A DNA stretch of 64,000 nucleotides, taken from positions 63,899 through 127,898 of the forward strand of contig JBMCHT010000002.1 of NCBI GenBank assembly GCA_048617235.1, written 5' to 3'. The position numbers and the translations under genes were made by a program. The stretch is from Patescibacteria group bacterium. Lineage in GTDB: Bacteria > Patescibacteriota > Minisyncoccia > Phycocordibacterales > XYD1-FULL-46-19. The notes beneath the pieces were generated by a model that was not told the origin of the DNA, did not search any database, and saw only the letters and a list, made by a program, of their open reading frames with translations. This document shows, piece by piece, positions 1-64,000 of the stretch (its first letter is position 1; each line of letters starts with the position of its first letter).

Positions 1-2466
1 TACCCGTGATGTCTGTTGATATGACGCAGTTGCTACATTTGTTATAAGTTCATCGGCCAGAGCGTTGAGATGTTCACTATTAGTATCTGCCAGAATCTCA
101 TCTATATCACCCTTAAAGAATTCTGGGACTCGATCCCAAGCCTCACGTCTGAGAGAAAGAAACTTCTGTTGAGCAACAGAAACCCATTGTCGCAAAAACA
201 TCGCGGGTGGATAATGATGTTTTTCTTCTTCGGGCAGAATAGATTCTAACAAGGAAATGATTGAATCAGTATCCTCGTGTGAGTTATCAAGTGATGTAGC
301 GAGTGAAATAAAATCTTCTCCACTTCTATCCCAGCGATTCGACATAACTGTATCCACAAACCATCTCCACCTCTCATCCTGCGGCGCTGTTGCTTCTAGG
401 GAAGTGAAATCTTCAATGTAGTACTCGTGCGCCGCAATAGATCTGTAAGCAAGATAATCTGGAGTTCTGTTTATTAAATGTAGTAAATCTCTACTCGCCT
501 CTGTTCCTTGTGTCATGCGTGCCCAACAAAGAATGAGTAGGTTCTCAATCTTGCTGAGTTCATGAATTGATAGATTGTCTTGTTCGTTTTCGAGAAGGTT
601 CCTTATAACCTCTTTTGCCTGCCTCCTTTCTTCTGGAAAATTATTAGCAAGTGGTACAGCAGAAGCATCAATCTGTCCACGGTGAGTAGAACCTATTGAT
701 TCAATAACAGGTATTGCTAAACAAATCCGGCCAGAAACAATAAGTTCTTTCAACGCCTCCATAGCGGCACTTCTCATTTCTTGAACCTCATTAATGTTAC
801 GTAGTGCCCGTTCCCCAAAAGTCATTTTGTTGCCGTACGAGTATCCTGTTTTGTGGGAAGCTCTTAAAACTTCCGAGAGACCATCCGAAATAAGTTTAAG
901 CTCAACTGAATCAGCAGATGCAATCCTATTTCTTAACAGTTGAATACGGGAAGTGATCTTTCTTGGCCCAGAAATTAGTGGGGACATGTAATCTTGCATT
1001 AACTCAAGCGACTTATAGTTATCGTACATACCCACCTTTACTGATACGCTTATACGCAGAATTGCGCTAAAGAGAGACCCTTCTTCATTTTCAAAAGAAA
1101 TTAGACTCTTTAGAAGTGGTCCGAATGAGTCTGTAGACAAATCAAGTTCTTCTCTCTCAACGCGAGAGAGAACTGAAAAGAGAAAATCAAAACAAGTATT
1201 TGCGGCAAAGTGAGAGACTCTCGACAACCAATCAATTCGGTTTTTAATTTCCTGTATCGAAAGTCTGTCAATTTCAGTAATCCATTGTGTAACAATTGCG
1301 TTCATTGCGCCTACAACTTGGGTAGCATCGTTGTCACGATAAGCACTTCCTAGATTCCCGAAAATACGCTCGGGATTGATATTTGTCCACTCTGTAATTA
1401 GACTAGTCACTTGATCTTGAGTGAAGTTGGTCATCCGAAAGGATAGGAAAATGTCACCTATAATATCTGCGTTAAAACGGATTGTTCTACCAACTTGTTT
1501 TAACACACCTGCTCGTATAAGCCGCTTCAAGGAGTCTTCAACTACAGCAACTGAAGAGTTTGTTCTGCTGGCTAATTCCTCAAGAATCCGCGCATCCTGC
1601 TCGTTAAAACCCGAAATCATAGCCAACTGAGTCAAAAGATTTTCAATATCAAGATTGACCCCTCTCATTACTGAACGAGTATCGGACAGCACATCCTGAG
1701 TTATTCGTTCTCTAAAAGCTTGTATGTTTTCAATGGGTTCGTTTTTGAGTTTTTTACCCATTAACACAATGAGGTAAGGATTGGGGTATTCTCCCAAAAT
1801 TACCTCTTCTGCATCAATTGTCTCCAATCCAGATACTCTGTGTAAGAGAGTGCTTAATTCATCCGCTGTCCAAGAAGTAATCTCTATCTTTTCTCCCGCC
1901 GATCTCAATCTTTGTCGTGTAATTGTCTCTTCAACAAAACTCAACCCGGCCGATCTGAAAGCAAAAATGATTTTTACGTTATTTCTGCTTCTATCCCTAT
2001 TCAAAAACTTTAGAAAAGGTAGGAGCTCTTCCTCATTTTTATCAGCAGCATCATCTAAGATAATTAGATATTTTCCTCCTCTACCAATTGCTGACAATAA
2101 ATCCTCTCGCAATGGACTTCCAGGTTTTACGATGAGTATTCTTTGATCTTCCTTAAACCTAAACGACGCTTCTCTTAGTAGGTGAGACTTTCCATGACCA
2201 GCGGGACCGTATATTAAAAGAAAATCTTTATCATCTGAATCTAAAAAACTTTCGATATCAGAAAGATATCCATTGAATCTATCAATTATGGTTACTGACA
2301 AATTAGTTAATTCAGGTTCTGATTCTTTAAAGTATTGTTCTGGTGTGGCAAAAGAAGGATGATGTTTGAAAATGTAGTTAAAAAATTTACCTGTGACCCA
2401 TCCAGGAAAATACGACAACAGGTTAGATACTAGGAAGAAAAGAATTTTTGCTAGCAAGGCTTCCAT
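1..2466 (-). CDS. STAND-like P-loop NTPase, partial; the C-terminus runs off the window and at least 822 aa are visible
   Basis: I translated the reverse strand by hand from the ATG at 2466 down to position 1 and found no stop. The ORF track omits it because it is edge-truncated. It has a Walker A FLLIYGPAGHGKSHLL and a Walker B KYLIILDDAAD (hhhhDD, STAND-type), an N-terminal hydrophobic helix (LLAKILFFLVSNLLSYFPGWV), an HTH-like segment (EQDARILEELASRTNSSVAVVEDSLKRLIRAGVL) and then several hundred aa of helical repeat-like sequence. It starts 5 nt after the res stop on the same strand. Confidence 0.6.
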   Translation of the reverse strand, partial: MEALLAKILFFLVSNLLSYFPGWVTGKFFNYIFKHHPSFATPEQYFKESEPELTNLSVTIIDRFNGYLSDIESFLDSDDKDFLLIYGPAGHGKSHLLREASFRFKEDQRILIVKPGSPLREDLLSAIGRGGKYLIILDDAADKNEEELLPFLKFLNRDRSRNNVKIIFAFRSAGLSFVEETITRQRLRSAGEKIEITSWTADELSTLLHRVSGLETIDAEEVILGEYPNPYLIVLMGKKLKNEPIENIQAFRERITQDVLSDTRSVMRGVNLDIENLLTQLAMISGFNEQDARILEELASRTNSSVAVVEDSLKRLIRAGVLKQVGRTIRFNADIIGDIFLSFRMTNFTQDQVTSLITEWTNINPERIFGNLGSAYRDNDATQVVGAMNAIVTQWITEIDRLSIQEIKNRIDWLSRVSHFAANTCFDFLFSVLSRVEREELDLSTDSFGPLLKSLISFENEEGSLFSAILRISVSVKVGMYDNYKSLELMQDYMSPLISGPRKITSRIQLLRNRIASADSVELKLISDGLSEVLRASHKTGYSYGNKMTFGERALRNINEVQEMRSAAMEALKELIVSGRICLAIPVIESIGSTHRGQIDASAVPLANNFPEERRQAKEVIRNLLENEQDNLSIHELSKIENLLILCWARMTQGTEASRDLLHLINRTPDYLAYRSIAAHEYYIEDFTSLEATAPQDERWRWFVDTVMSNRWDRSGEDFISLATSLDNSHEDTDSIISLLESILPEEEKHHYPPAMFLRQWVSVAQQKFLSLRREAWDRVPEFFKGDIDEILADTNSEHLNALADELITNVATASYQQTSRV

Positions 2467-2471
2467 GGCAT

Positions 2472-4751
2472 CTAGAGTGTTAGTTTCTTACCATCTACCT
2501 TCCAACCATTTGGACCATCTTGCACCACGATACCGCCATCAAAATTCTTTTTGCCTTTTAACCAATCCTTTAGAGCTTGTTTCTTATACTGCATGTCATT
2601 ACTTTCTGCAGTAAAGCCAGCTTTAGTATCGAGAATCCAAATCTTATTTTTTGTCTTTACAATCCAGTCAGGATAAAAGAGTCGCTCACGATTTTCTGTC
2701 TCGTGATAATACGGAATGGAGAAGTATTCACTTCCAGAGTCACCGTTTTTGTACCACCACTCGACCTTGCTTGATGATTCAAGATACTTAATAAACTCTT
2801 TTTCATTTTGGACAGGTTCTTTCTGAATATAGAAAGGTTGCATTGCAGACTTTTTGACTTTCATTTCTTCATAGAGATCGGTGAAAAATAGGTATTCTCT
2901 CGGTATTTCAAGTACTTCGGTTCGACGTGTTCGTTTAGCTTTCTCTTTGACTTCCTTTTCACGAATCGGGCGATACTTTTCTAGTGTCTCACCAAGAATA
3001 GGTCGTAGTACACTATCTGGGCGGAGTAGATCATTTACAATAACTTTGTAATAATCTTCACGAGCGAGATCAAGAAGGTTAGAAAAATATACGTTCAGTG
3101 CGGTTTTCAACTTTCCCCATGAACGTTCTGGTGCAAATTTCTTATTCTCATCTTCTTGCTTGGAAATGATATTGAAACAGAGAAGATTATAGAGACGCTC
3201 CAGATCATTACGTGATATTTCATTTGAAAGCTCTGCTGTACTTTCTCTTAGCTCCTCAACGAAGTTGTCGTAGTTTTCTATCTCAGCATCAACAATAAGA
3301 CTACTTTCTACTTTCACATCAGTGACATCGAGACTTTGTTCTTTAAATTTCTTTTTTATCTGAGCTTTCGTGTCTCCATCTTTAATGCCAAGTTCTTTGT
3401 TAGCAACTTGCCTGAACGTCTTCTGGAATGAATCACCCAGGTCATTGTAGTCAGCACGACTCATGAAAACAGACTCAAGCTCTATCGGCTTAATGTCTTT
3501 CTTGCGTCGACTGATTTGTGTGGCAGGACGATTTTCTCCTTTCTGCTTATCGTACTCAGCAAGGATCTGATTCCGTTCGTAGTTTGTATATAAGTATCCA
3601 ATGTTAAGCTCGGGCATTGGATAATGAATGGCTTCTGGCATACGAAGAATTCTACCGACAGTTTGAATATGAAAGACTGGGCTTTTAATTTCTCGATACA
3701 TCACCAAAATAGCTGCACGAGGACAATCCCATCCAGTCGCGGCTGCCTGTTTGAAAACTAAAAAGTTTATCTCTGAATCACTTTTTTCAATTTCGTCTAA
3801 ATTCTCTTTGTCGTTTGAAAGCCAAACAGCAACATTATGATCTTCTTCTCCTTTATCTTTAAGGAAATCTAAAACAACATCCTTCTTTGATTTATCTAAG
3901 GTTTCCTTACGAGCCTTGTCATCATTAGGGAGCTGAACAAGTACCAGAGGATTAATATCAACACCAAGTTTTTTATAACTCTTCTTAAGCTCTAAACGCT
4001 TTGAGTATGCAAGATCAAGCAAAAGAAGATCTTGATCAATCTCTTTCTTGGCTTCTTTCTCAATATCCTCCTTAGTCTGAGTTATAACTTTTTCCTTAAT
4101 TAGACCTTCCTCTATAACCGCATCACGTTCCACCTCCACAAAACCAACCTTTTTGTTCTTCACATCAGAATATGATGGTTCTTTCTTTGGAGTGGCTGTA
4201 ATTTTAAGGATGATACGAGGATCAATCAGGTTAATAAGCTCTTGAGCCAGATCGGTACTTGCATCACGATGAGCTTCGTCAATAATCAAAACGATTTCCC
4301 GACCATCTGCTTGCGATTTCTGAATAAAAGAGTCAAAAGTAATATCGTTCTCGTTTTCTTTACGTAACTTGCGACCATCTTTTGTTGAAGTTTTAATTTT
4401 TTGCCAATTAATAAAGAAAACGCTGTTCTTTTCTAGTTTTGCGTTTCGAGTAAGGTCATTTAAATCAAGTAGTTCGATTTCTCCGGCTCCGCCATAATAT
4501 TTAAAAAGTTTTTTCTTGCTCTGCTCGTATGATTCTTCGTTGAAAGTGAACCACACAAATGCCTTATCAGCATTAAATTGTGGATCGCCTGTTAAGTCAC
4601 GCAAAAACTGAGCGGTCATTACTGTCTTTCCTGAACCAGTTGGTGATTTAAAAATAAGCTCGAGCCTACGATTTCCAGTACCCCAAAGTTCGAGAAAACT
4701 TTTTCGTAGTTCAGCTATCGCTTTTTCTTGAAAGGTTTTAAGTGTAAACAT
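2472..4751 (-). CDS. res: Type III restriction endonuclease, Res subunit (SF2 helicase plus C-terminal nuclease)
   Basis: 759 aa with helicase motif I SPTGSGKT and motif II IIDEAH, and a C-terminal PD-(D/E)xK-like WILDTK. It sits directly downstream of the mod gene. Confidence 0.85.
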   Translation of the reverse strand: MFTLKTFQEKAIAELRKSFLELWGTGNRRLELIFKSPTGSGKTVMTAQFLRDLTGDPQFNADKAFVWFTFNEESYEQSKKKLFKYYGGAGEIELLDLNDLTRNAKLEKNSVFFINWQKIKTSTKDGRKLRKENENDITFDSFIQKSQADGREIVLIIDEAHRDASTDLAQELINLIDPRIILKITATPKKEPSYSDVKNKKVGFVEVERDAVIEEGLIKEKVITQTKEDIEKEAKKEIDQDLLLLDLAYSKRLELKKSYKKLGVDINPLVLVQLPNDDKARKETLDKSKKDVVLDFLKDKGEEDHNVAVWLSNDKENLDEIEKSDSEINFLVFKQAAATGWDCPRAAILVMYREIKSPVFHIQTVGRILRMPEAIHYPMPELNIGYLYTNYERNQILAEYDKQKGENRPATQISRRKKDIKPIELESVFMSRADYNDLGDSFQKTFRQVANKELGIKDGDTKAQIKKKFKEQSLDVTDVKVESSLIVDAEIENYDNFVEELRESTAELSNEISRNDLERLYNLLCFNIISKQEDENKKFAPERSWGKLKTALNVYFSNLLDLAREDYYKVIVNDLLRPDSVLRPILGETLEKYRPIREKEVKEKAKRTRRTEVLEIPREYLFFTDLYEEMKVKKSAMQPFYIQKEPVQNEKEFIKYLESSSKVEWWYKNGDSGSEYFSIPYYHETENRERLFYPDWIVKTKNKIWILDTKAGFTAESNDMQYKKQALKDWLKGKKNFDGGIVVQDGPNGWKVDGKKLTL

Positions 4752-4753
4752 AA

Positions 4754-6394
4754 TTATTTCTTGTTAATTTCCTTGTATACTTCAAGGATCGGTTCTGGAA
4801 TATCTTCAACTCGAATATTCTTATATTCAGAAAACTCGTTTTTATACTCATTCTTGCCCCAACTAAAGATATATAGAGCTGCACTGTCAGATTTGCTGAT
4901 TTTACCAACAAGCTCGTCAAGCTTTTCTTTATCTTCTTTAAAGTAAATAGCGGTAGTTCTACCTTTCTTGTCGATAAATATCTGCCACCAGTCATTTTTT
5001 TCTCTCTCTGTGAGTGTGTCCTCTCGCAATGCAATCATACGACCTGCCTGATAGGTAAGTTCGATTTTCTTGTGGTCCGAAACATTGTGTACTGACTCAA
5101 CATCTACAAACTCTGTCTTGTAATATCGAAGGTTTGATGGGATGCCTTCTGTATTACCATATCCCTCAATTACATTCTTTATGCGTGGATATGTAATTTC
5201 TCGAGCAATACCGCCTTCATTATTTGTACACAAAATAAATTTGTGGTTCTGATTATATTTTTGATTGATTAAAGCAACAGCATGTCCTGTGGTTTCTGAG
5301 CCAGCAAAAAAATCCAACACTGTAGCGTTTTCTTTATCATAAATCACCGTTTCTAAACATTTAGCTGTTGCAAAAAGTGACTTTGGATAAGGAAACTCTG
5401 ATCCTACAATATTTTTAACCAGCATTGTTCCATACTTACCTGCATCTAATTCACCTCCAGTCCAAACTGTTTTATATCTAGCCGAAACAGCAGTAACATA
5501 CAGCTGGTAATCTCCTTTTCTTTCCTTAACTTCTATTCTCTTTACATGGTTTTCTATAGAATCTATACCAAAGTGCCATCTTCTCTCATCTCCCTTATCA
5601 TCTATTGGCCACACTTCGATCTCTCCATTATCTAAACTTTTACTTCTTTGAGATGGATGAAAATTTACATCTGGAACCTGACCTATACGAACAACTTTTC
5701 CATCTTTAACATAAATAGGAAAGAACATTGTTGGTCGATCAGTTCTATATGAGGCACGTCCAGCACGCCTTAGATTTCTTGTATCAATTTTATCCTCAGG
5801 ATTTTTGCCGATAACAGATTTACCCTTTGGAATCACAAAATGAGCATATTCATGTGATTCTGAAAAATTTCTACTTGGTAAACCTTTAGGGTTATGCTCA
5901 ATTACAATAGTAATTATTTCATGTGTTGGGAATAATTCAGCAAGAAGTATTAGCAGTGTGCCGTTTTCATATTTATCAATTGTGGCAATTAATACACCAT
6001 CATCTTTTAGAAGATTTTTGGCAATCCTAAGACGATTATTCATCATGGATATCCATTTGCTGTGGCGGAATGAGTCATTCTCATCCACGTAGTCATTATT
6101 GTATTTCCAATCCTTAGCACCTGTATTGTAAGGTGGGTCTATATAGATTAAATCTATACTCTTACGATGAGTATAATTTAAAACAGTAAGTGCGTGATAA
6201 TTATCACCCTCGATAAGCAAGTTTGTAGGTTTTTCTAGACTCTTTTCTACAATCTTTTTTTCATCCTCACTAAAAATTGGAATCTTTGTTTTACATTGTT
6301 CAACAACATCTTCTGGTTTATCTTCCCAAACCAAACCGTAAGATTTTCGAGACTCAAGTTTCTTGATCTCCTCAAGCAATTCCTCCTTATTCAT
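4754..6394 (-). CDS. mod: Type III R-M N6-adenine DNA methyltransferase, Mod subunit
   Basis: 546 aa with the DPPY catalytic motif (LIYIDPPYNTG) and a later FFAGSETTGHA SAM-binding-like motif. Its stop is adjacent to the res start. Confidence 0.85.
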   Translation of the reverse strand: MNKEELLEEIKKLESRKSYGLVWEDKPEDVVEQCKTKIPIFSEDEKKIVEKSLEKPTNLLIEGDNYHALTVLNYTHRKSIDLIYIDPPYNTGAKDWKYNNDYVDENDSFRHSKWISMMNNRLRIAKNLLKDDGVLIATIDKYENGTLLILLAELFPTHEIITIVIEHNPKGLPSRNFSESHEYAHFVIPKGKSVIGKNPEDKIDTRNLRRAGRASYRTDRPTMFFPIYVKDGKVVRIGQVPDVNFHPSQRSKSLDNGEIEVWPIDDKGDERRWHFGIDSIENHVKRIEVKERKGDYQLYVTAVSARYKTVWTGGELDAGKYGTMLVKNIVGSEFPYPKSLFATAKCLETVIYDKENATVLDFFAGSETTGHAVALINQKYNQNHKFILCTNNEGGIAREITYPRIKNVIEGYGNTEGIPSNLRYYKTEFVDVESVHNVSDHKKIELTYQAGRMIALREDTLTEREKNDWWQIFIDKKGRTTAIYFKEDKEKLDELVGKISKSDSAALYIFSWGKNEYKNEFSEYKNIRVEDIPEPILEVYKEINKK

Positions 6395-6573
6395 TTTTGA
6401 GTAATCTTTTGATATGTTATTTTAACATTAAATCACATTTAGACTTATTTTTCCATCTTAAATTTATCTCTCCAACCCTAACATTTATTGAGAAATATAA
6501 GTAATAAGTTACCAACTCTATCCTCTCCGGACGCTCTAGACTCCCCCAACCTATTCTGTCATTCCTTAGAGAT

Positions 6574-7611
6574 ATGGAAGAAATAGAGATCAAATATGTC
6601 CTCTGTGCTCGAAAGAGCTCAGAAAGTGATGAAAAACAAGCTCTCTCAATAGAGGCGCAAGTTAAAGAAATGATCCAGATGGCTGAAAGAGAGGATTTGG
6701 AGATAGTAGAGATACGTCGAGAATCTCATTCAGCTAAAGACTCAGGTAAAAGACCAATATTTAATGAACTTCTGAAAGATATTAGAGATGACAGATTCAA
6801 TGGAATAATTGTTTGGCATCCAGATAGATTAAGTAGAAATGCTGGAGATCTTGGTAGTTTAGTAGATTTAATGGATCAGAAGAAACTAGTGGAGATAAAA
6901 ACTTATGGGCAGAAATTTACCAATACTCCTAGTGAAAAGTTTCTCCTCATGATTTTATGTAGCCAAGCAAAACTGGAAAATGACAATAAAAGCGTCAACG
7001 TTAAGAGAGGCTTAAGAATGAGATGTGAGATGGGCTTGTGGCCAGCGCCGACCCCCACAGGATATTTAAATGAAAAGAGGATAGATAGAAAAGGTTATGT
7101 CTATATTGATAAAGAAAGAGGTCCGGTAATAAAAAAGATGTTTGAGAAAGTTGCTTATGAAAAATGGTCAGGTAGGAAGGTATATCATTGGCTTAAGTTT
7201 GATTTGAATTTCAAAAGTTCAACCAGTGGTAAAAACTTAACTTTAAGTAATATATACAGATTACTACAAACCCCTTTCTACTATAGTCGGTTTGAATACC
7301 CCGCTGGTAGTGGTAATTGGTACCAAGGAAGACATGAACCATTAATAACTGAGGAATTGTACCAAAAAGCTCAAGAACACCTTAAAAGAGATAGAATTAC
7401 CCGAGGAGAATCTAAAGAATTTGCTTTCACTAGATTAATACACTGTGGGTTATGCAAATCCGGAGTCTGTGCTGAAGAGAAGTTCAAAAAATTGAAATCC
7501 GGAAAAACCTTAAGGTATGTCTACTATGGGTGTAATAGATCAAAAGACAGATTCTGTAAATGTGGCTACATTCGAGAAGAAAACCTAATCAAAGACTTAT
7601 GGATCAAATAG
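6574..7611 (+). CDS. Large serine recombinase (resolvase/invertase catalytic domain, recombinase domain and zinc ribbon); the C-terminus is truncated by a frameshift
   Basis: The N-terminus YVLCARKSSESDEKQALSIEAQ carries the catalytic Ser context, followed by the recombinase domain and a Cys ribbon (CGLCKSGVC...YYGCNRSKDRFCKCG). The ORF ends at a TAG at 7609. Confidence 0.8.
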   Translation: MEEIEIKYVLCARKSSESDEKQALSIEAQVKEMIQMAEREDLEIVEIRRESHSAKDSGKRPIFNELLKDIRDDRFNGIIVWHPDRLSRNAGDLGSLVDLMDQKKLVEIKTYGQKFTNTPSEKFLLMILCSQAKLENDNKSVNVKRGLRMRCEMGLWPAPTPTGYLNEKRIDRKGYVYIDKERGPVIKKMFEKVAYEKWSGRKVYHWLKFDLNFKSSTSGKNLTLSNIYRLLQTPFYYSRFEYPAGSGNWYQGRHEPLITEELYQKAQEHLKRDRITRGESKEFAFTRLIHCGLCKSGVCAEEKFKKLKSGKTLRYVYYGCNRSKDRFCKCGYIREENLIKDLWIK

Positions 7612-7877
7612 ATGAACTAGATGTTAATGATGTGGCTGTACAGAAGAAGTTCCAAGCTGAATATACTAGAGCCAGTAGATTTCAAAAGAAGTTTTTAGGA
7701 AAAGAAAACAGTAAAGTGAAAGTGGATAATTTAGATATTAAAAGTTATATAAAACATGTGTTGATCGAAGGAACCGTTGAAGAAAAAAGAGAACTATTGG
7801 GAGAGATACAAAATAAATTAATTTTAAAAGAAAGAAAAATTATTTTGGAAAACATAAGTAACGACAGCGGCAATTAA
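7560..7877 (+). pseudogene. C-terminal coiled-coil segment of the same serine recombinase, in the -1 frame
   Basis: The 105-aa K/E-rich helical ORF overlaps the 3' end of the previous ORF in another frame. Together the two pieces are about 435 aa, typical of a large serine recombinase. Confidence 0.55.
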
Positions 7878-8768
7878 AATAATTAATACACCTATAAAAA
7901 TTTTACCGAAAGGTTTTTCATGCCACTCTTTAGATATGTTTAAAGTTTTTTTAAGAGACGTTTTTTTAAAATTATCTCCAACACCAAAATGAATTTGTGA
8001 ATTATTAATAACAGGATCTTGGTCTTTTTCATTTACAATAGCACTATTTTCAATATCATAATTATTATTGGAAACAATAGAAACATTTTTACCTCTAATT
8101 AGTAATCTCATATCCTCACAAAATAAGACATCATTCATCGAATTAACAGCCTTTATCCATTCATTTTTATCACCTTTATATATTTTTATATCCACAAGCC
8201 TCAGAACAACCTTATTTAAGTCATAATCTGAAAGCTCTTTCAAAACACCCAGAACCCAATTCTTTCTTGTAGAACCATCATGTTTTACATTTATCCCAAT
8301 CTCTTGAAAAAATTTAGTTAAATAAAAAGAAGATCTATAGATTGGAAATTTTTCTGCGTTATCTCCACATATAAAATCTGCAATATTTTCCAAAGTCACA
8401 TCATCAATATCACTTAATACGACATCGCTTTTAATAACAGAAAAATAATTATTTAACTTTTCTTTTATAAAATTAAAATCTTTTATAATTTTTACCTCTT
8501 CTTCTTGTTTATGAGAAGTTATATTTTCAATAAGATCAACAAAATCCTGGATTTTATAAACTATATTTTTAATACTTTCTAAATTTAAATTATTTAGATC
8601 AAGACCCTCAAAAGATTCAAGTGCAACATTTAATTTAAATTGCCATTCTCCATTATCACCCACATCAACAGTATCAGATAAATTTTGAAGATTCCTTTGC
8701 ATATCTTCTATTGTGGATATACAAAGTTCGTTTAAAAATATATTTTTAAATACTATGTCATTATTCAT
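7824..8768 (-). CDS. Hypothetical protein with a C-terminal TM helix
   Basis: A 314-aa ORF at about 22% GC against about 40% for the core. I recognise no motif in it. Confidence 0.5.
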   Translation of the reverse strand: MNNDIVFKNIFLNELCISTIEDMQRNLQNLSDTVDVGDNGEWQFKLNVALESFEGLDLNNLNLESIKNIVYKIQDFVDLIENITSHKQEEEVKIIKDFNFIKEKLNNYFSVIKSDVVLSDIDDVTLENIADFICGDNAEKFPIYRSSFYLTKFFQEIGINVKHDGSTRKNWVLGVLKELSDYDLNKVVLRLVDIKIYKGDKNEWIKAVNSMNDVLFCEDMRLLIRGKNVSIVSNNNYDIENSAIVNEKDQDPVINNSQIHFGVGDNFKKTSLKKTLNISKEWHEKPFGKIFIGVLIILIAAVVTYVFQNNFSFF

Positions 8769-8814
8769 AATAATTAGGCATCTCGGTCTTGCGCGATACC
8801 TCTACTTGCTCGTG

Positions 8815-8885
8815 CTGCCCGGCAGGGACTCGAACCCCGATTTCTTGGACCAAAACCAAGCGTCCTGCCATTAGACGACCGGGCA
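8815..8885 (-). tRNA. tRNA-Gln (anticodon TTG)
   Basis: Hand-folded: acceptor TGCCCGG/CCGGGCA, anticodon arm CTTGG-TTTTGGT-CCAAG, T-arm CGGGG-TTCGAGT-CCCTG. No CCA is encoded. Confidence 0.8.
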
Positions 8886-9065
8886 ATATAACTTAAACTA
8901 TACTATACCACAAACGGGTTCGAGTCAGGGACTCGGTCACAACTCTCGCTTCGCTCGGTCGCGACCCCGCCTCACAGTTGTTGTGTCGCTTCGCTCCTTA
9001 CAACATGTTCCGGCTCTGACTCTGGCACGGAAGCCAAGCAGTTGGCTTCCTACTCCGTTTCACTA

Positions 9066-9131
9066 CGTGCCCGGGTCAGCCCCTCTTCTTGGACCAAAAC
9101 CAAGCGTCCTGCCATTAGACGACCGGGCAAT
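9066..9131 (-). repeat. Degenerate partial second copy of tRNA-Gln (pseudo-tRNA or att remnant); 9086..9131 is a 46-bp perfect direct repeat of 8842..8887
   Basis: The 46 nt 'ttcttggaccaaaaccaagcgtcctgccattagacgaccgggcaat' occur identically at both sites. The second copy keeps the acceptor 3' strand 'tgcccgg' but replaces the T-arm with 'gtcagcccctc'. Confidence 0.7.
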
Positions 9132-10838: not shown

Positions 10839-11855
10839 TTATAACAAATTATTCTTTATAAATCTTTTTAATAAATCTATGGCTGCTGTGGCCTCAGTCG
10901 TTTCCATTAAAAGATTTCTTAATTCCACCGCTTTGGTAAAATCCGTCACATAAGCCTTAAAATGTTTTTTCATTACGGCATAATTTTTTTGATGACCTTG
11001 AAATTGTTGCTGATTAAATTCGCTTTGACCATAATAACGATCAAATAATTCCAAATGTTCAATCAAGATGGATAATCTGGTTTTTAAATCCGGATCCGGG
11101 CCAGTAAACAACCAAGGGCGACCATAAATTCCTCGGCCAATCATAATTCCATCTAAACCATAGGTTTGAGCTTTTGTTTTGGCCTCTGCCGGAGTTTTAA
11201 CATCTCCGTTACCTAAAAGAAGAATATCGGTACCGGAAAAAATATCTGCCAAAATTTGGGCTTCTTCCCACCGAGCCGGCACTTTGGACATTTCTTTTCT
11301 GGTCCGCAAATGAAAAGTAACTGCCGCCGGACAAGCAGCTATTAAGGCCTCCGGCCAGGCCGGCAATTCTAATTGATTGTAGCCCAAACGAGTTTTAACC
11401 GATATTGGAATACTATAACCGGCTTCAAGCACTCCTTCTTTAGCGGCTATAATTATTTCTTGAGCCAAAGTTGGATTTTTAATTAAAGCAGAACCGGCTT
11501 TTTGTTTTTCTACGGTTTTATCCGGACATCCCATATTAATATCTATCCCGGCCAAACCCCAACCGGCCACCAAAGAAGCAGCTTGTTTCATTTTAGTCGG
11601 ATTACTGCTAAATAATTGAGCCACTATCGGTTGTTCAATTTTCGTATAAAATAATTCTCTTTTTAATTTAGCTTGAGCCTCCGGATGAACCAAACCGTCA
11701 GCGGAAACAAATTCCGTAAAAAAAACGTCCGGCCCGGCCGGTTTGGAATATTTGGCAATTAATTGGCGAAAGACAGCATCCGTGACATCGGCCATGGGCG
11801 CCAAAGCAATTATCGGTCGCGGTAAATTTATCCAAAAATTAGCTTGATTCGACAT
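10839..11855 (-). CDS. dus: tRNA-dihydrouridine synthase
   Basis: ALAPMADVTD ... GIDINMGCP, the FMN-binding TIM-barrel Dus signature. Confidence 0.85.
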   Translation of the reverse strand: MSNQANFWINLPRPIIALAPMADVTDAVFRQLIAKYSKPAGPDVFFTEFVSADGLVHPEAQAKLKRELFYTKIEQPIVAQLFSSNPTKMKQAASLVAGWGLAGIDINMGCPDKTVEKQKAGSALIKNPTLAQEIIIAAKEGVLEAGYSIPISVKTRLGYNQLELPAWPEALIAACPAAVTFHLRTRKEMSKVPARWEEAQILADIFSGTDILLLGNGDVKTPAEAKTKAQTYGLDGIMIGRGIYGRPWLFTGPDPDLKTRLSILIEHLELFDRYYGQSEFNQQQFQGHQKNYAVMKKHFKAYVTDFTKAVELRNLLMETTEATAAIDLLKRFIKNNLL

Positions 11856-11868
11856 ACAATCTCATTCA

Positions 11869-13104
11869 CTAATTAGCCAAAACTCTGCGCGTTCTTTCAC
11901 CTACAACCCCGGTACCTTGAGTTAAGCCAAAAGGCTCTAAAACAAAACTGCGATGTCTTTCTTGAAAAGCAATCACTGCCGCCTGAGTACAAGGACCAAA
12001 ATTACCATTAACCGGACACTCGGCCAAACTCCGACCAGCCGGCGGATAAAAACCCCTAATTTGCAATCTCCTTTGCAATAAATAAACCGCTTGATCATCT
12101 CTTAAACCATATTTAAGATCCCGGCCGATGGAATAATCTGCCAAAGCAGTGGGAGATAAGGCCAGTGATTTAACCGGATCTTCTCCGGCTAAAGAAGCCT
12201 TGGTGGATAAATAGGTATACCAAGCCATTTCTCGACCGGCTAATTCTCGAACCTCCGGTTTTCTAAAAACAGATTCGTAAATATAACCATATTCCAGTAA
12301 AACCGAAGGAATATTAATAGAACCAATAGCTCCGGTGGCAATTAAATCGTCCGACTCTATAATTCCTCGTTTTTCACCCGGAGCAATACTAACCATTAAA
12401 AATTGTTGCAAACCGGCAAAAAGAGATTTAGCCAATTGGCGGCTAATTTTATGATGGTGGTAATCGGCTGCCGGAATAAAAATAGAGAAACCCCGAAAAG
12501 TGCCCGGTATCCTTAAATTATTTCTGGCCTGATCATTAATATGAATGTGTAAAACTAAATCAAAATTTTTTTCCATCGCCCAGTAATTGGTGGCATATAA
12601 TCGATAAGCAATCTCTGAAGTTTTACTATTGCTCCCTAAAGGTTCAAAGCTAATCTTGCCCCGATTAAATAAACTTTGAGTTAATATATGCCCCTTTTGT
12701 CTAAAAGACATTACATCCTCTCGTTTATTTTTTAAAAAATATTCAAAATCTTCTTGGTATTCACCAGTAGTTAAATCTCTGATAATTTCTACTTCAAAAT
12801 TTTCATCTTGATTAAAAAAATCAAATAAAGGTTCGGCGATAGCCAAAACCGCATCAGCTTCTTTTAAATCACCAAAAACGGCTCCGCTGTATTGGTTATC
12901 GTGACCGGGGACTAATAAAACTTTTACCTTTTGCTCCGGATCAGCATAAACATCAGTAATATCCGACCACACCACCGCCGGCGCCCAAGCCGAGCTCAAA
13001 AGATTCCACCACTTTTGACCCAAAGGGTGGAATAAGATAATCAATCCAAAAATGATGGCTAAAATTAAAATCAATAAAGGCCAATTAAAGTATTTTTTAA
13101 GCAT
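11869..13104 (-). CDS. N-acetylmuramoyl-L-alanine amidase (Amidase_3) with a C-terminal peptidoglycan-binding domain
   Basis: An N-terminal TM, then LVPGHDNQYSGA and LHIHIND (Amidase_3 metal ligands), and a C-terminal PG_binding_1-like RDDQAVYLLQRRLQ...TQAAVIAFQ. Confidence 0.7.
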   Translation of the reverse strand: MLKKYFNWPLLILILAIIFGLIILFHPLGQKWWNLLSSAWAPAVVWSDITDVYADPEQKVKVLLVPGHDNQYSGAVFGDLKEADAVLAIAEPLFDFFNQDENFEVEIIRDLTTGEYQEDFEYFLKNKREDVMSFRQKGHILTQSLFNRGKISFEPLGSNSKTSEIAYRLYATNYWAMEKNFDLVLHIHINDQARNNLRIPGTFRGFSIFIPAADYHHHKISRQLAKSLFAGLQQFLMVSIAPGEKRGIIESDDLIATGAIGSINIPSVLLEYGYIYESVFRKPEVRELAGREMAWYTYLSTKASLAGEDPVKSLALSPTALADYSIGRDLKYGLRDDQAVYLLQRRLQIRGFYPPAGRSLAECPVNGNFGPCTQAAVIAFQERHRSFVLEPFGLTQGTGVVGERTRRVLAN

Positions 13105-61194: not shown

Positions 61195-61269
61195 GGCCCT
61201 ATCGTCTAGCGGCTAGGACGCCACCCTTTCACGGTGGAAACCGGGGTTCAATTCCCCGTAGGGTCACCA
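61195..61269 (+). tRNA. tRNA-Glu (anticodon TTC), CCA encoded
   Basis: Hand-folded: acceptor GGCCCTA/TAGGGTC, anticodon arm CCACC-CTTTCAC-GGTGG. Confidence 0.8.
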
Positions 61270-61345
61270 ATTAGAGCGTAGTTCGAACGCTCGAGAAGGA
61301 TTAGAGTTTTTAATAACTTCAGGGTTATGTATAATTTTAGTAAAT

Positions 61346-62539
61346 GTGATTAATACTATGATTAAACAGTTCAACAACAATGAATCATTTAAAGAAAAGT
61401 CACCTGAAGATCATGGTGGTGATATAGAAAGTATAAACAGTATTGAAAAAACATCAGGGGGTACAGAGATCCTTCCTCCGCTATCCAATAAATATCAAGA
61501 TAAGTTGAGAAAAATCTTGGAACAGATACCTAAAGAAGAAAAAGACAATGAATTTATTTATCACGGTACTATTATTGGTACCGAAGAAATATGTTACTTG
61601 AAGGAAGTTTTGGAGAAATACTCAGATGTTATAGACAGACCTGAAGCAAACAAAGAAGAAATCTATCAAAATTTTGACGAAAAGGAATATCATCGAGTAT
61701 CATCAGTTAGACGCTGGAAACATTTGAGAGATATTCTTTCTAGGGGTGACTACCCAGGAGATAATACACCGGACAATGGTTTTATAAGTGATAACATAGA
61801 ACCTTATTTCAGTAATGAGTATTTTGACGCCTTGTTCGATTTGATTAATCAAAGACCAGACGGGGTTTTTGCTGTACCCACAGGCGCTATTCAAGCAGAA
61901 ATCATATTAAAAGGGATGATAACTGGTCTAAAATTTGAACTAGAGAAGCAGGGTTGGGACGGGATTAAAGTGCCTTATTTTACTGCCCCTCACTCGACCC
62001 TCCTTACTCGACATGAAAGTCCTCGGACTACATACGATGAGCTAGTCACTGCAACTGAGCCTACAATCATTAATATTTTTAATAAAAGAGAAGATCCAAA
62101 TATAGTGACAATTTCTGTTTTTGACGAATGTAGAAATACCGGAGGAAGTCAAAAGAGGGTCGAGGAACTAATAAGGAAGACGTATTCGGAATTGCAGAAC
62201 AAAGGTCAAATTCCTCAACCTTGTGAATTGCAAATAAATTCTGTTCATGCTGTATACCCCGGCTTGTCCGAAGCATATAGATTTCTCAAAAAAGATGAGA
62301 GATCTCTTGATCGAAGACGAGTTAGTATAAAAGATGGATCAGTTGAATTTCGACGAGAGCGTTTAGCTATTGAATTAACAAAAATATTCGGCTTCTTTAC
62401 GGGTCGACTATACGGAAACATAGTTGCAAATCTAGAAGATGAAAACATAAAAAATAATGTCGGAGGCTACAAGTATAAATACAGATTAGGTTCTAAATAT
62501 TATCATGCAATTAAAAAAGGTTTGAAGAAGAAGTCCTGA
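61346..62539 (+). CDS. Hypothetical protein with a PRTase-like fold (PRPP-loop-like VTISVFDECRNTGGS)
   Basis: 397 aa. VFAVPTGAIQAEII resembles the PRTase hood/loop and VTISVFDECRNTGGSQKRVEEL resembles a PRPP-binding loop carrying DE rather than DD. Confidence 0.45.
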   Translation: MINTMIKQFNNNESFKEKSPEDHGGDIESINSIEKTSGGTEILPPLSNKYQDKLRKILEQIPKEEKDNEFIYHGTIIGTEEICYLKEVLEKYSDVIDRPEANKEEIYQNFDEKEYHRVSSVRRWKHLRDILSRGDYPGDNTPDNGFISDNIEPYFSNEYFDALFDLINQRPDGVFAVPTGAIQAEIILKGMITGLKFELEKQGWDGIKVPYFTAPHSTLLTRHESPRTTYDELVTATEPTIINIFNKREDPNIVTISVFDECRNTGGSQKRVEELIRKTYSELQNKGQIPQPCELQINSVHAVYPGLSEAYRFLKKDERSLDRRRVSIKDGSVEFRRERLAIELTKIFGFFTGRLYGNIVANLEDENIKNNVGGYKYKYRLGSKYYHAIKKGLKKKS

Positions 62540-62756
62540 ATTATATAATCGTTAAAATTATCTACTATTTTTAGGTAAGAAGAAAAATCTATCACTTTCG
62601 TCACATTTTAGCGCTCGAGAAGGGTCAAAACGCAAAAATAAAAAATTATTAAAATAAGCTTTGGGAAACAATAAATCCTTAGACTTCATTACCAAAATAA
62701 AAAACATTCAATCTTTAAAGTTCGCTGAGGGAAGAACTATAAATATTGTATAAAAT

Positions 62757-63281
62757 ATGAAAATTAAAATAAAAACAGCTACCCCGAAAGATGCTTTAGA
62801 TATAATAAGGGTTTTACATAAAACTTGGCTTAATACTTATCCTAATGAAAAATTGAAAATAACCAAAGAGGTTATTAATGAAACTTACAAAAATTCTTAT
62901 AAAGTGGAAAATATAAAAAAATTTCAAGAAAAAATAAGAAACATTCCTGATAATCAAAAAAGATTGGTTGTTCAATCTGACAATAAAATAATTGGCATTG
63001 CTACTGGCATTATTTAAAATGATTTCAATGAACTTACAACAATTTATGTTTTGCCTCAATTTCAAAATAACGGCATAGGTAAAAAATTATATAATGAAAT
63101 ATCAAAATTTTTTAATCCATCCCAAAAAACTATAGTTAAAGTTGCCACATATAACAAAAAAGCGATTGAATTTTATAAAAAATTAGGTTTTATTGATACT
63201 GGAAAAAGATTTACAAATGATAAGATTATAACTAAAAAAGGGGTAAATATTCCAAAAATGGAGATGGTTCTAGAAAAGTAA
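62757..63281 (+). pseudogene. GNAT N-acetyltransferase interrupted by an in-frame TAA at 63015..63017
   Basis: The ORF-track pieces 62757..63017 and 63051..63281 are in the same frame. The sequence reads straight through the stop as ...IGIATGII*NDFNELTTIYVLPQFQNNGIGKKLY, and the segment after the stop is GNAT motif A (Q/RxxGxG). Confidence 0.6.
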
Positions 63282-63366
63282 TTTTAATTTTTTAAAATAT
63301 ATTACATTTAACTCATTTTATATAAAAAACTTTTTAGTATTAAATAAAATATCATAAAATTATCAA

Positions 63367-63846
63367 ATGAAATTAGTTTTTACTTATCTTAAAAATCTTA
63401 ATATAGATTATACTCTTTACGAACACCCGGCGGTTTTTACCGTAGCCGAAGCTGAACAACATCGGCCGAATATTGTTTTTGGGGAAAATAAAAACTTATT
63501 TTTAAGAAATAAAAAAGGTAATAAAAATTATTTAATCACCATCAAAGCCAATAAAAGATTAGATTTAAAAAATCTAACTAAAATTTTAAATGAAGACAGA
63601 TTGAGCTTTGCTACAGAAAACAGATTACAAGAATATTTAAATTTAAGTCCGGGTTCAGTCTCCCCTTTTGGTTTAATCAATGATAAACAATCTCTGGTTG
63701 AATATATTTTGGATGAAGATCTATTACAATATTCTAAATTAGGCTTTCATCCCAATATCAATACTCAGACTGTAATTTTAAACACCATGGATTTTAAAAA
63801 ATTTTTAGAGTCCTTAAATAACAAAATATCTTTTCTGAAATTATAA
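63367..63846 (+). CDS. YbaK/ProX-like aminoacyl-tRNA deacylase domain protein
   Basis: YTLYEHPAVFTVAEAEQ...GSVSPFGL matches the YbaK family. Confidence 0.7.
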   Translation: MKLVFTYLKNLNIDYTLYEHPAVFTVAEAEQHRPNIVFGENKNLFLRNKKGNKNYLITIKANKRLDLKNLTKILNEDRLSFATENRLQEYLNLSPGSVSPFGLINDKQSLVEYILDEDLLQYSKLGFHPNINTQTVILNTMDFKKFLESLNNKISFLKL

Positions 63847-63852
63847 AAATCA

Positions 63853-63925
63853 CCCCCGGCTCAAGGGCCGGGGGTTGCAATTAGAAACGACGGGAAGCCA
63901 GTTTCCTGGCTTCTTTTTTACCGCC
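63853..63925 (+). terminator. Two tandem hairpins after the last gene, the second a canonical rho-independent terminator
   Basis: The first is cccccggc-tcaag-ggccggggg. The second is gaagccag-tttc-ctggcttc followed by tttttta. Confidence 0.55.
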
Positions 63926-64000
63926 CAAGCAGTGGGGCGTAAAACACCCGCAACTTGGACAGTAACTGCGGCCATTAGTTAGCCGCCCATTGTGATGAGT

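Follow-up and report, generated by a model that had tools for sequence, protein, structure and literature searches.

A probable defence island at the 3' end of a Patescibacteria tRNA-Gln gene, linked to a widespread family of large serine recombinases

Genomic islands at tRNA genes are textbook knowledge and are credited to tyrosine integrases. The mobilome and defence-gene traffic of Patescibacteria are barely described, and genetic tools are lacking for these CPR bacteria. In the Islander (2014) and TIGER (2020) studies, serine integrases were not known, or not proven, at tRNA genes (PMC4383910, PMC7192596). Of 297 serine-integrase elements in TIGER, 14 lay at t(m)RNA genes, and its authors called for experimental proof (PMC7192596); a large serine recombinase is present in 27 of 937 tycheposons of Prochlorococcus (bioRxiv 10.1101/2020.12.28.424599). 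Enzymes of this class also serve the ssrA-specific islands of Dehalococcoides, through the CcrB-type recombinase DsiB (McMurdie et al. 2011, PMC3146451), and the SCC elements (SCCmec), whose CcrAB or CcrC integrate them at the 3' end of rlmH with defence cargo on board (PMC11470126). What is new at the locus described here is a tRNA-flank island that would be driven by a serine instead of a tyrosine integrase.

The window, by which we mean the whole 64,000-nucleotide stretch of DNA analysed, opens with a block of defence genes at positions 1-8813. The block ends at a tRNA-Gln(UUG) gene, whose 3' end faces it. An initial sequence-only reading had listed an NTPase, Type III mod and res genes, a serine recombinase, an AT-rich gene and the tRNA-Gln, and all were found where it had placed them. 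The features of the block are as follows.

1..2466, minus strand: STAND NTPase gene, first 822 of 1146 codons, the remainder lying past the left end of the window
2472..4751, minus strand: Type III Res, 759 aa (Pfam ResIII, PADLOC REase_III)
4754..6394, minus strand: Type III Mod, 546 aa (PADLOC MTase_III, Pfam N6_N4_Mtase)
6574..7611, plus strand: large serine recombinase, 5' reading frame, 345 aa (catalytic, recombinase and zinc-ribbon regions)
7560..7877, plus strand: large serine recombinase, 3' reading frame (coiled-coil region from 'MDQIDEL', ~7599 onward)
7824..8768, minus strand: AT-rich cargo gene, 314 aa, 25.1% GC
8772..8813, minus strand: conserved motif at the island end, immediately after the tRNA; tRNA-sense sequence ACGAGCAAGTAGAGGTATCGCGCAAGACCGAGATGCCTAATT
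8814..8885, minus strand: intact tRNA-Gln(UUG) (ARAGORN; Rfam tRNA, 58.6 bits)

The left boundary had been expected outside the window, and this was borne out by the source contig (L001; CAYOAU010000001.1, GCA_964402165.1), which we used for the sequence left of the window and which extends the block up to the T-box leader and AspRS. Beyond the window, L001 carries the rest of the STAND gene, a gene for a 217-aa protein (hyp217), the T-box leader of AspRS (L001 16725-16902, E=4e-9) and AspRS, in that order. The block totals ~10.5 kb, of which ~1.7 kb lies past the left end of the window, and we consider it likely that the whole is an integrated, cassette-type defence island.

Most of the block is occupied by an operon with the gene order mod-res-STAND-hyp217; mod and the recombinase gene are transcribed away from each other and are 179 nt apart. 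Mod matched PADLOC MTase_III (E=9.8e-68) and Pfam N6_N4_Mtase (E=3.7e-21), and the motifs 'DPPYNTG' and 'FFAGSETTG' could be read from its translation. The res gene, 2 nt from mod, encodes a protein matching Pfam ResIII (E=2.7e-19) and PADLOC REase_III (E=7.7e-15), with a DEAH box ('IIDEAHR') and a PD-(D/E)xK-like C-terminal motif ('YPDW...LDTK') in its translation. Judged by these matches and motifs, adjacent mod and res in one operon form a complete predicted Type III restriction-modification (R-M) system. Third in the operon is the STAND gene, which starts 5 nt past the res stop codon and at full length encodes 1146 aa (L001 12286-15726). Its product scored 36 bits against Pfam nSTAND_NTPase5 (cut-off 34) and has the Walker A motif GPAGHGKS, and PADLOC gave weak matches only (Avs2, E=4e-4; mad8, E=7e-5). 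With just ~70 residues ahead of the P-loop, the protein shows no evident effector domain; it may act in defence. The last gene product, hyp217, is a zinc-ribbon protein with homologues several kb beyond the recombinase gene in related islands: 6-8 kb 5' of it in L093, L110 and L154, and as a remnant near the contig ends in L173-L176. The observation that mod, res and the NTPase gene are close to core GC held on measurement (Mod 35.1%, Res 37.8%, STAND 39.5%). Given this core-like composition, the three genes may be old or separately acquired.

The AT-rich gene on the other side of the recombinase gene had been described as an orphan of about 22% GC, but we measured 25.1% GC (GC3 15.6%) and found 20 homologues. 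Its GC content lies ~2.5 SD under the mean of the window (36.6%, SD 4.6%, for segments of 945 nt). As another 945-nt stretch of the window goes down to 23.3% GC, this composition is not unique. From its N to its C terminus, the protein comprises a helical bundle, a conserved domain of ~100 aa (residues ~120-220), a linker that is disordered and a transmembrane helix. Homologues have the conserved domain in one of two fusions, with a transmembrane helix or with a C-terminal part containing 'RDFRNYIHP', and one of them has DUF4145 in that position. One homologue sits between hsdM and hsdS in a Type I R-M operon. An AlphaFold model of the protein (pLDDT 78) had no significant match in the PDB. 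The gene encodes a predicted membrane protein with a defence-associated domain, and its function may be defensive.

Between the operon and the AT-rich gene lies the sole recombinase of the block. It is of the serine type, and none of the island proteins scanned matched Phage_integrase, the tyrosine recombinase family. Pfam identified the Resolvase (E=3e-20, residues 9-154) and Recombinase (E=4e-9) domains, together with a weak Zn_ribbon_recom match (E=9e-4, 20 bits, under the cut-off of 25). The Cys pattern of the zinc ribbon, C-x2-C...C-x(8-11)-C, is kept in all aligned homologues, and most of the listed homologues have a precomputed PF13408 annotation. The serine motif 'ARKSSE' belongs to a signature, ARKS(S/T)E, that is invariant in an alignment with 14 homologues. 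The best match in a phage library was the PHROG integrase phrog_95 (E=1e-57).

This recombinase gene is split into two open reading frames (6574-7611 and 7560-7877) that differ by -1 in frame. Joining '...IKDL' to 'MDQIDEL...' yields a 434-aa protein that is collinear with intact homologues of 420-450 aa, which points to a 1-nt deletion near 7600. Among the listed homologues, 118 of 119 are 415-482 aa long and the remaining one has 363 aa. The same frameshift is present in a 100% identical Logan contig (L002). The coiled-coil region is still alignable, yet out of frame. In serine integrases, the C-terminal coiled-coil is needed for synapsis and directionality control. The copy in the window can be assigned to the large serine recombinase family and is probably non-functional. 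With the coiled-coil region lost through a 1-nt frameshift, the island is probably no longer mobile and would be fixed in place. Neither an excised form nor a junction of the attB or attP type was observed.

Homology searches and gene neighbourhoods assign the recombinase to a very large, undescribed, Patescibacteria-wide family found next to tRNA genes. At least 7,870 database clusters matched it at E<=1e-80, and every named one was from Patescibacteria. In a sample of 80 metagenomic loci with recombinase homologues, a tRNA gene was located 3' of the recombinase gene in 36, and the two genes were convergent in all 36. The 5' side contained a single tRNA in 366 kb, compared with 36 loci in 372 kb on the 3' side. 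Where the full 10 kb downstream was available, 19 of 22 loci had a tRNA. This pattern of convergent tRNA genes on the 3' side argues that the arrangement is not chance co-location. The family and its end motif occur at seven tRNA isotypes. The three closest metagenome relatives with a tRNA in the locus (L153, L161, L118) all have tRNA-Gln(UUG) and the same flank type, as do both DNA-bearing relatives of the 84-85% clade.

The flank itself carries a conserved motif. Directly after the tRNA, the closest relatives (L153, L161, L118, L172, L173) share the pattern AC(G/C)AG...TATCG.G...GACC... The motif is ~40 nt long, also occurs at Ser, Asp, Arg and Lys tRNA loci, and is absent from controls. Across isotypes, recombinase-linked tRNA flanks resemble each other far above control tRNA flanks (Mann-Whitney p=3e-12). 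We propose that positions 8772-8813 are the element arm (P') of attL. A sister island is 100% identical over 11,950 nt in two contexts (L173 versus L176), and this identity stops at the base after the tRNA discriminator. Crossover appears to take place at or just past the tRNA terminus, rather than in the anticodon or T loop.

A repeat of the tRNA-Gln 3' segment, which the sequence-only reading had proposed to seek as attL, was absent from the window and from 16 kb of the source contig. The sole tRNA-Gln repeat was a 5' half-copy on the opposite side of the tRNA. As the integrase is a serine rather than a tyrosine recombinase, long tRNA repeats are not required. The only candidate for the far end was a 15/17 match, GACCGAGA..CCTAATT (L001 16472-16488; p ~0.002 within the 308-nt gap under a mononucleotide-shuffle null). 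A second, faint similarity, to the sister island's far end, is found just past the hyp217 stop codon. In relatives, displaced direct repeats of the tRNA 3' end or junction were found beyond the 5' end of the recombinase gene: 19 nt at 2.9 kb in L094, 19 nt spanning the junction at 8.2 kb in L100, and 21 nt at 5.0 kb in L156. These positions put the recombinase within the island, flanked by cargo on either side. In L129, the end motif occurs as an inverted copy.

The cargo of other islands consisted mostly of Type I, II, IIG or III R-M genes, with metal ATPases and DsbA among the other neighbours. Islands whose ends could both be placed measured 5-16 kb. Recombinases that are 85% identical carry quite different gene sets on either side, so cargo turnover is faster than that of the recombinase. 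This exchange bears on a possible, though rather unlikely, history in which the block is an accreted defence island: the recombinase and the AT-rich gene (~2.4 kb) would be one unit, and mod-res-STAND-hyp217 would be a separate arrival, brought by an earlier element of this type or through an exchange of cargo, and would now merely lie beside that unit. At 25% GC against 35-40% in the R-M/STAND operon, the AT-rich gene contrasts sharply in composition, which fits such accretion, as does the tandem arrangement in L094, where the displaced tRNA 3' fragment at the far end is followed by another copy of the end motif. Against it, the far-end repeats in L094, L100 and L156 put the genes beyond the 5' end of the recombinase gene inside the element. 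Furthermore, a divergent R-M operon recurs in L172, L173 and L159, probably also in L135, and hyp217 homologues recur beyond those operons. Accretion is compatible with the single island that we favour and would not exclude it.

The cargo also speaks to the highly improbable case of a decayed prophage or satellite whose integrase and some moron genes are all that remains. In its favour, an integrase of the serine type is a typical temperate-phage trait, a phage integrase family ranked first among the PHROG matches, and the integrase is frameshifted like those of many prophage remnants. Yet no capsid, tail, terminase, replication or lysis genes were found in the block, where the integrase was the sole real match to the phage library. 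Nor did phage genes appear among the 25 commonest Pfam families of 98 cargo proteins from 36 related islands, which are small and carry mostly R-M and other host-benefit genes. We give equally little credence to the recombinase as a local DNA invertase or regulator, for example in phase variation of mod, with an incidental position at the tRNA. The short divergent spacing from mod would suit an invertase, some data sources label homologues as 'DNA invertase Pin-like', and the PHROG DNA invertase phrog_125 was a secondary match. However, Resolvase, Recombinase, zinc ribbon and C-terminal coiled-coil are the domain set of a serine integrase, and the top match in the phage library was an integrase. 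Inverted repeats bracketing mod or its promoter were not found, and the association with tRNA genes is constant amid neighbouring cargo that ranges over R-M of Type I, II or III, metal ATPases and DsbA.

We compared the same locus in other hosts. Synteny of Dus, DnaX and tRNA-Gln is kept across Paceibacteria-like genomes and ends at the tRNA, and DnaX followed by tRNA-Gln is kept in 13 Patescibacteria loci. In eight GTDB loci whose sequence ran on for 5 kb or more past tRNA-Gln, there was no such recombinase, and no gene of the block was present in the sequence fetched. Related islands occupy the locus in eight others (L012, L094, L117, L123, L153, L161, L172, L173), whose DnaX is 35-52% and whose recombinase is 60-85% identical to that in the window. 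In L172 and L173, the recombinase at the same Dus-DnaX-tRNA-Gln place is 84-85% identical and the cargo is different, whereas DnaX is only 44-46% identical. A recombinase better conserved than its host, patchy occupancy and a tRNA-adjacent family support the initial proposal of an island at tRNA-Gln, and the finding that would have spoken against it, the same genes at an uninterrupted tRNA-Gln in relatives, did not turn up. The evidence supports the reading of the block as horizontally acquired DNA inserted at the tRNA-Gln 3' end. The nearest species-representative genomes have ~47% DnaX identity, and relatives with 76-80% AspRS identity showed no synteny around AspRS. Since these searches gave no empty site from a close relative, we infer the insertion rather than see it. 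Least credible of all is a vertically inherited core genome in which defence genes just pile up near tRNA genes, which would agree with the core-like GC and GC3 of mod, res and STAND and with the missing close-relative empty site, but not with the disparity between recombinase and DnaX identity, the patchy occurrence at a conserved locus or the same family and end motif at seven isotypes.

A large serine recombinase most likely placed the block after tRNA-Gln. The island would be a member of a Patescibacteria-wide element family built around a large serine recombinase of ~440 aa, which would join a site on the element with a chromosomal site spanning the extreme 3' end of the tRNA and its downstream flank. 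The tRNA would be left intact, with the element directly after it and the recombinase gene pointing towards it. Variable cargo slots would lie on either side of the recombinase gene. In this block, the slot on the tRNA side would hold the AT-rich membrane-anchored protein with its defence-associated domain, and the slot upstream of the recombinase would hold mod, res, the STAND NTPase and the zinc-ribbon protein in a tight operon. We infer catalysis by the recombinase, the exact crossover point and the far boundary to the nucleotide. A broader proposal, which we advance tentatively and hold at somewhat short of an even chance, is that these compact (~440 aa) Patescibacteria recombinases are dedicated tRNA-end integrases, with one isotype (Gln, Ser, Trp, Arg, Asp, Asn or Lys) per subclade and a conserved ~40-nt element arm, and that they serve as the main carriers by which R-M cassettes, and others with defence or adaptive functions, pass from one reduced genome to another.

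Starting from one window, the analysis led to a family-wide and statistically clean association of serine recombinases with tRNA 3' flanks, together with an end motif and R-M cargo. If they are dedicated tRNA-end integrases, the working rule that only tyrosine integrases target tRNA genes would be overturned, and tRNA ends, both universal and conserved, would be the natural attB sites of a set of serine integrases. If active, the recombinases would account for the traffic of defence systems between these tiny genomes, and unidirectional integrases with naturally conserved landing sites would be helpful for CPR genetics. More modestly, the window likely holds a real island, probably now immobile, whose cargo includes a complete Type III R-M system alongside the STAND NTPase and the membrane protein with its defence-associated domain.

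Among described systems, the Dehalococcoides islands resemble this one in their serine recombinase, the 3' terminus of a small stable-RNA gene as insertion site, direct repeats of this terminus, tandem accretion and variable adaptive cargo. They belong to another host phylum and target a single tmRNA gene instead of tRNA genes. Their integration module comprises six genes, one of them for a further, small serine recombinase (DsiA), whereas the family described here has a single ~440-aa recombinase with no conserved adjoining partner gene; DsiB is likened to it by description, not by sequence. SCC elements, a comparison likewise drawn from literature descriptions rather than sequence, are also small, cassette-type islands, neither conjugative nor phage. 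A large serine recombinase inserts them at the 3' end of a housekeeping gene that is conserved and stays active, their cargo includes R-M and further defence systems, and they occur in tandem arrays. Their target is protein-coding, in contrast to the tRNA genes of at least seven isotypes here, and their recombinases are often paired. Tyrosine-integrase islands of the Islander/TIGER class (PMC4383910, PMC7192596) similarly target the 3' part of a tRNA gene, preserve the gene, and have their integrase and adaptive or defensive cargo on board, but the integrase here is a serine recombinase. The signature of that class, an intact tRNA gene plus a displaced 3' fragment of it, is absent here, and only 3 of ~30 related loci examined have it. 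Tycheposons, likened by description and not by relatedness, are small, cargo-carrying integrative elements at tRNA genes of streamlined genomes as well. Unlike the islands described here, in which no replication or packaging genes were seen, they overwhelmingly use tyrosine recombinases and often carry replication genes.

The block that follows tRNA-Gln in the window was characterised by ORF listing, a tRNA scan and profile searches (window 1-8814). The defence genes, recombinase, AT-rich gene and tRNA-Gln described by the sequence-only reading are all present, and are arranged as follows.

2466 to beyond the left window end, minus strand: STAND NTPase gene, with Walker A motif GPAGHGKS and a Pfam nSTAND_NTPase5 match just over the cut-off
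2472-4751, minus strand: Res, with ResIII and PADLOC REase_III matches, a DEAH box and a C-terminal PD...DTK motif
4754-6394, minus strand: Mod, with a PADLOC MTase_III match (E = 1e-67) and a DPPY motif
Starting at 6574, plus strand: large serine recombinase
7824-8768, minus strand: AT-rich gene of 314 aa
8814-8885, minus strand: tRNA-Gln(UUG), on which ARAGORN and Rfam concur

Spacings of only 2 nt between mod and res and 5 nt between res and the NTPase gene indicate that these three genes form a single operon. Their GC content of 35-40% is core-like, as that reading had stated, against a window mean of 36.6% (SD 4.6% in windows sized like the AT-rich gene). The GC content of the AT-rich gene itself had been put at about 22% and was measured at 25.1% (GC3 15.6%).

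The interpretation of this block as an integrated island is supported by where synteny ends, by the conservation of the recombinase relative to its host, and by the habitual position of the recombinase family beside tRNAs. The order Dus-DnaX-(0-4 kb)-tRNA-Gln is kept in 13 Patescibacteria loci, none of which contains any gene of this block in the sequence fetched; eight loci with at least 5 kb of downstream sequence lack the recombinase. Conserved synteny ends at tRNA-Gln. Close relatives were not found in a DnaX scan of species-representative genomes, where the nearest DnaX was about 47% identical. On the AspRS side synteny is absent, as AspRS homologues at 76-80% identity (loci L163-L167) have unrelated neighbourhoods. 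Recombinases 84-85% identical to that of the window (loci L172 and L173) occupy the same spot: they follow tRNA-Gln(UUG), have DnaX and Dus as neighbours and point towards the tRNA convergently. The DnaX proteins of their hosts reach just 44-46% identity, and the islands carry different cargo, namely a Type I R-M system and an OLD-family nuclease in L172 and a Type II AlwI-type R-M system, a ParB-methylase and a nuclease in L173. The recombinase is thus conserved better than its host. A DnaX-tRNA-Gln flank is common to six further loci, with DnaX identities of 35-52%.

Association with tRNA genes extends across the recombinase family. A metagenome scan with the intact recombinase of locus L012 as query yielded 80 loci, which were all oriented so that the recombinase is read from the plus strand. 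In 36 of these a tRNA is found 0.1-9 kb past the 3' end of the recombinase gene, and every one of these tRNAs is encoded on the other strand, its 3' end towards the recombinase. Where the full 10 kb downstream was available, a tRNA was present in 19 of 22 loci. The 5'-side DNA (366 kb, compared to 372 kb examined on the 3' side) contained a single tRNA. The isotypes next to the recombinase family are Gln, Ser, Trp, Arg, Asp, Asn and Lys. Among the 80 loci, the tRNA-bearing ones with recombinases closest to that of the window (L153, L161 and L118; 68-69% identity) all have tRNA-Gln(UUG), as do both DNA-bearing members of the 84-85% clade, and all five share the flank type of the window. Recombinase clade and target are therefore associated. 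Our search of the full-text literature, whose coverage was incomplete and leaves absence unproven, found no description of serine-recombinase islands at tRNA ends in Patescibacteria.

The approximately 40 nt directly 3' of the recombinase-linked tRNAs are alike between loci and even between isotypes. This end motif, a putative arm of the element, comes in two groups: TATCGAG-N(1-4)-GACCGAGA, and a short palindrome of the GAGCTAGC(A/T)C type followed by CGAG. In the window it reads ACGAGCAAGTAGAGGTATCGCGCAAGACCGAGATGCCTAATT (8813 down to 8772). Flank similarity across isotypes was far above that of 85 control tRNA flanks (Mann-Whitney p = 3e-12), and 23 of 37 recombinase-linked flanks exceeded the 95th percentile of the controls.

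Four control flanks also exceeded that percentile, including that of tRNA-Glu at the other end of the window (61195-61269, plus strand), which is immediately followed by ATTAGAGCGTAGTTCGAACGCTCGAGAAGG, a palindrome-type end motif (region to 61300). A second recombinase island at this tRNA was rejected: the end motif is present, but the window has no recombinase homologue there (61270-64000). The site may be an empty landing site or what is left of an island that has decayed. Downstream of it lies a 397-aa ORF of unknown function, and at 62757-63281 two short neighbouring ORFs (86 and 76 aa) resemble a single GNAT-type acetyltransferase broken in two by a frameshift or stop codon, as judged by eye from the translations.

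Repeats at the far ends of related islands were found on the 5' side of the recombinase gene. In L094, an exact 19-nt repeat of the tRNA 3' end lies 2.9 kb past the 5' end of the gene; in L100, a 19-nt repeat made up of the last 7 nt of the tRNA and 12 nt of flank lies 8.2 kb past it; in L156, a 21-nt repeat lies 5.0 kb past it; and in L129, an inverted copy of the end motif lies 2.3 kb past it. These four far ends imply that the element encloses the recombinase gene and has cargo to either side of it. The stretch shared by the three direct tRNA-end repeats (L094, L100 and L156) puts the crossover in the final few bases of the tRNA or the base immediately beyond. At the far end of L094 (7049-7207), the displaced 18-nt 3' fragment of tRNA-Gln is followed by a second end motif (ACAAGAGCGACGCTCGAGTCGCGTC), an arrangement suggestive of insertions made in tandem or one after another at a single tRNA.

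The tRNA-proximal end can be located in the sister island of L173, which three further samples yielded again as contigs of some 12 kb (L174-L176). The island adjoins tRNA-Gln in L173, L174 and L175. L176 is 100% identical to L173 over 11,950 nt, including a recombinase 85% identical to that of the window, and identity breaks at the base following the tRNA discriminator (L176 11951-12191 versus L173 11968 onward). Beyond the break, L176 runs into an IS3-family transposase gene, which it enters at the terminal inverted repeat. The tRNA-proximal end of this island therefore coincides with the tRNA terminus, whatever made the second context. The far ends of all four contigs lie within 172 nt of one another.

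The left boundary had been placed outside the window, and the source-contig locus L001 bears this out. A look-up of the Res protein traced L001 to a 336-kb contig of a Patescibacteria MAG (GCA_964402165.1). L001 is the reverse complement of the window (L001 position = 14752 minus window position) and extends past its left end. There the NTPase gene runs on to a full length of 1146 aa and is followed after 13 nt by hyp217, a Cys-rich 217-aa gene with no match among Pfam and PHROG families. In L093, L110 and L154, homologues of hyp217 were found at 6-8 kb from the recombinase in the 5' direction, and in L173-L176 a remnant of its C-terminal part, 69% identical, is situated 70-240 nt from where the contigs end. 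This recurrence in related islands supports counting the whole operon as part of the island. A gap of about 330 nt separates hyp217 from a T-box leader (L001 16725-16902; 48 bits, E = 4e-9, under the Rfam gathering score of 93 and located as expected), downstream of which a nondiscriminating Asp/Asn-type tRNA synthetase flanks the island.

The block thus measures about 10.5 kb, from the first base past the tRNA to somewhere within L001 16393-16725 (window approximately -1640 to -1970), and we place the far boundary as this interval rather than as a base. A second copy of the tRNA-Gln 3' segment, proposed as attL, was not found in the window or L001 (up to 3 mismatches; 10-nt seeds), and in L172 and L173, the closest relatives, no att-like repeat at the far end exceeded what shuffled sequence gives. 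At L001 16472-16488, a direct match at 15 of 17 positions to the distal part of the end motif (GACCGAGA..CCTAATT; p ~0.002 within a 308-nt gap) is the best candidate for the far end. A second, weaker resemblance, to the far end of L173, lies immediately past the hyp217 stop codon. The boundary is probably within L001 16393-16490 (window -1640 to -1740).

We next consider the cargo, using 98 ORFs located between recombinase and tRNA in the 36 loci. The commonest Pfam families include ResIII, N6_Mtase, Eco57I, DNA_methylase, parts of HsdM, HsdS and HsdR, and PLD nucleases, and PADLOC identified components of Type I and Type II R-M systems. Heavy-metal ATPases and Thioredoxin/DsbA/DsbB genes are also among the cargo. 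Genes for phage structure or replication were found neither in the window island nor among the commonest cargo families of the 98 ORFs, and a prophage reading was rejected for want of any such gene.

The AT-rich gene had been regarded as an orphan, yet it has 20 homologues. Searches of Pfam, PADLOC and PHROGs returned nothing for it. In other proteins its conserved domain (residues ~120-220) is joined either with a transmembrane helix or with a C-terminal part bearing 'RDFRNYIHP', a putatively HEPN-like motif; in one homologue the C-terminal part is DUF4145. One homologue is encoded within a Type I system, where hsdM and hsdS are its neighbours on either side. An AlphaFold model (pLDDT 78) consists of a helical bundle at the N-terminus, the conserved domain, which is also helical, then a disordered linker and lastly a membrane helix at the C-terminus, and had no PDB match at E<0.1. 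The gene context is consistent with an abortive-infection-type defence role.

In the window, the recombinase gene is split. Its 5' ORF encodes 345 aa and ends at a stop codon just past the zinc ribbon, while the remaining part is encoded by an overlapping ORF in the -1 frame (7560-7877). Fusion at ...IKDL|MDQIDEL... gives a 434-aa product that aligns end to end with 14 intact homologues, covering the catalytic 'ARKS' serine motif and the zinc-ribbon Cys pattern. Among the 119 matches listed, all but one (363 aa) are 415-482 aa long. This alignment and these lengths indicate a 1-nt deletion near 7600, with loss of the coiled-coil region. The frameshift is also present in L002, a Logan contig 100% identical to the window region that possibly originates from the same sample. 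The window copy of the island is probably immobilised at present.

Further sequence features were observed around tRNA-Gln. An exact 46-nt direct repeat (window 8842-8887 and 9086-9131) comprises 2 upstream nt and nt 1-44 of the tRNA, so that the intact gene is preceded, at a distance of 244 nt, by a 5' half-copy of tRNA-Gln. The spacer between the copies (8888-9085; 198 nt, 57% GC) carries two GACCGAG heptamers and the GAGTCCCTG of the tRNA. Its folding was modest (z = -2.4 on both strands), Rfam gave no match even at E<=10, and no homologue was found in any fetched locus. Readings as a group I intron or as a split tRNA were both rejected, since tRNA nt 1-44 would then have to be duplicated inside the 'insert'. 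The repeat and spacer may be the remnant of an element targeting the 5' side. L002 ends precisely where the 46-nt repeat ends. Among relatives, the region just upstream of tRNA-Gln is variable too: L017 (11165-11519) has a small GIY-YIG nuclease ORF flanked by exact 33-nt direct repeats, which take in the tRNA's first 12 nt, L012 (15170-15424) has a GIY-YIG ORF (Pfam E = 8e-14) overlapping the tRNA 5' end, and L003 (11106-11492) and L004 (11045-11419) have paired palindromes 345-359 nt apart. In L007 (~11855-11872) and L008, both without a recombinase, an inverted copy of the tRNA-Gln 3' end (…CAGGGACTCGAA) lies about 60 nt downstream of the tRNA.

We propose that the serine integrase of this clade would join a site on the element to a chromosomal site formed by the tRNA-Gln 3' end and its downstream flank. 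The tRNA would stay intact after insertion, with the element arm of about 40 nt remaining beside it, and cargo would be swapped in two slots flanking the recombinase gene. The link to tRNAs, the conserved end motif, the repeats in relatives and the stronger conservation of the recombinase than of its host are shown by the data; we infer the catalysis by the window recombinase, the exact crossover point and the present immobility of the window copy. The window copy belongs to a large recombinase family, which is of more interest than the copy itself.

Of 297 serine-integrase elements, TIGER assigned 14 to t(m)RNA genes, a usage that its authors termed unreported and for which they requested experimental proof (PMC7192596). 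The tmRNA gene of Dehalococcoides, with a CcrB-like recombinase, offers a precedent (PMC3146451). A few tycheposons carry large serine recombinases (bioRxiv 10.1101/2020.12.28.424599). Judging from their description in the literature, SCC elements are a functional analogue of the islands described here, although their target is a protein-coding gene.
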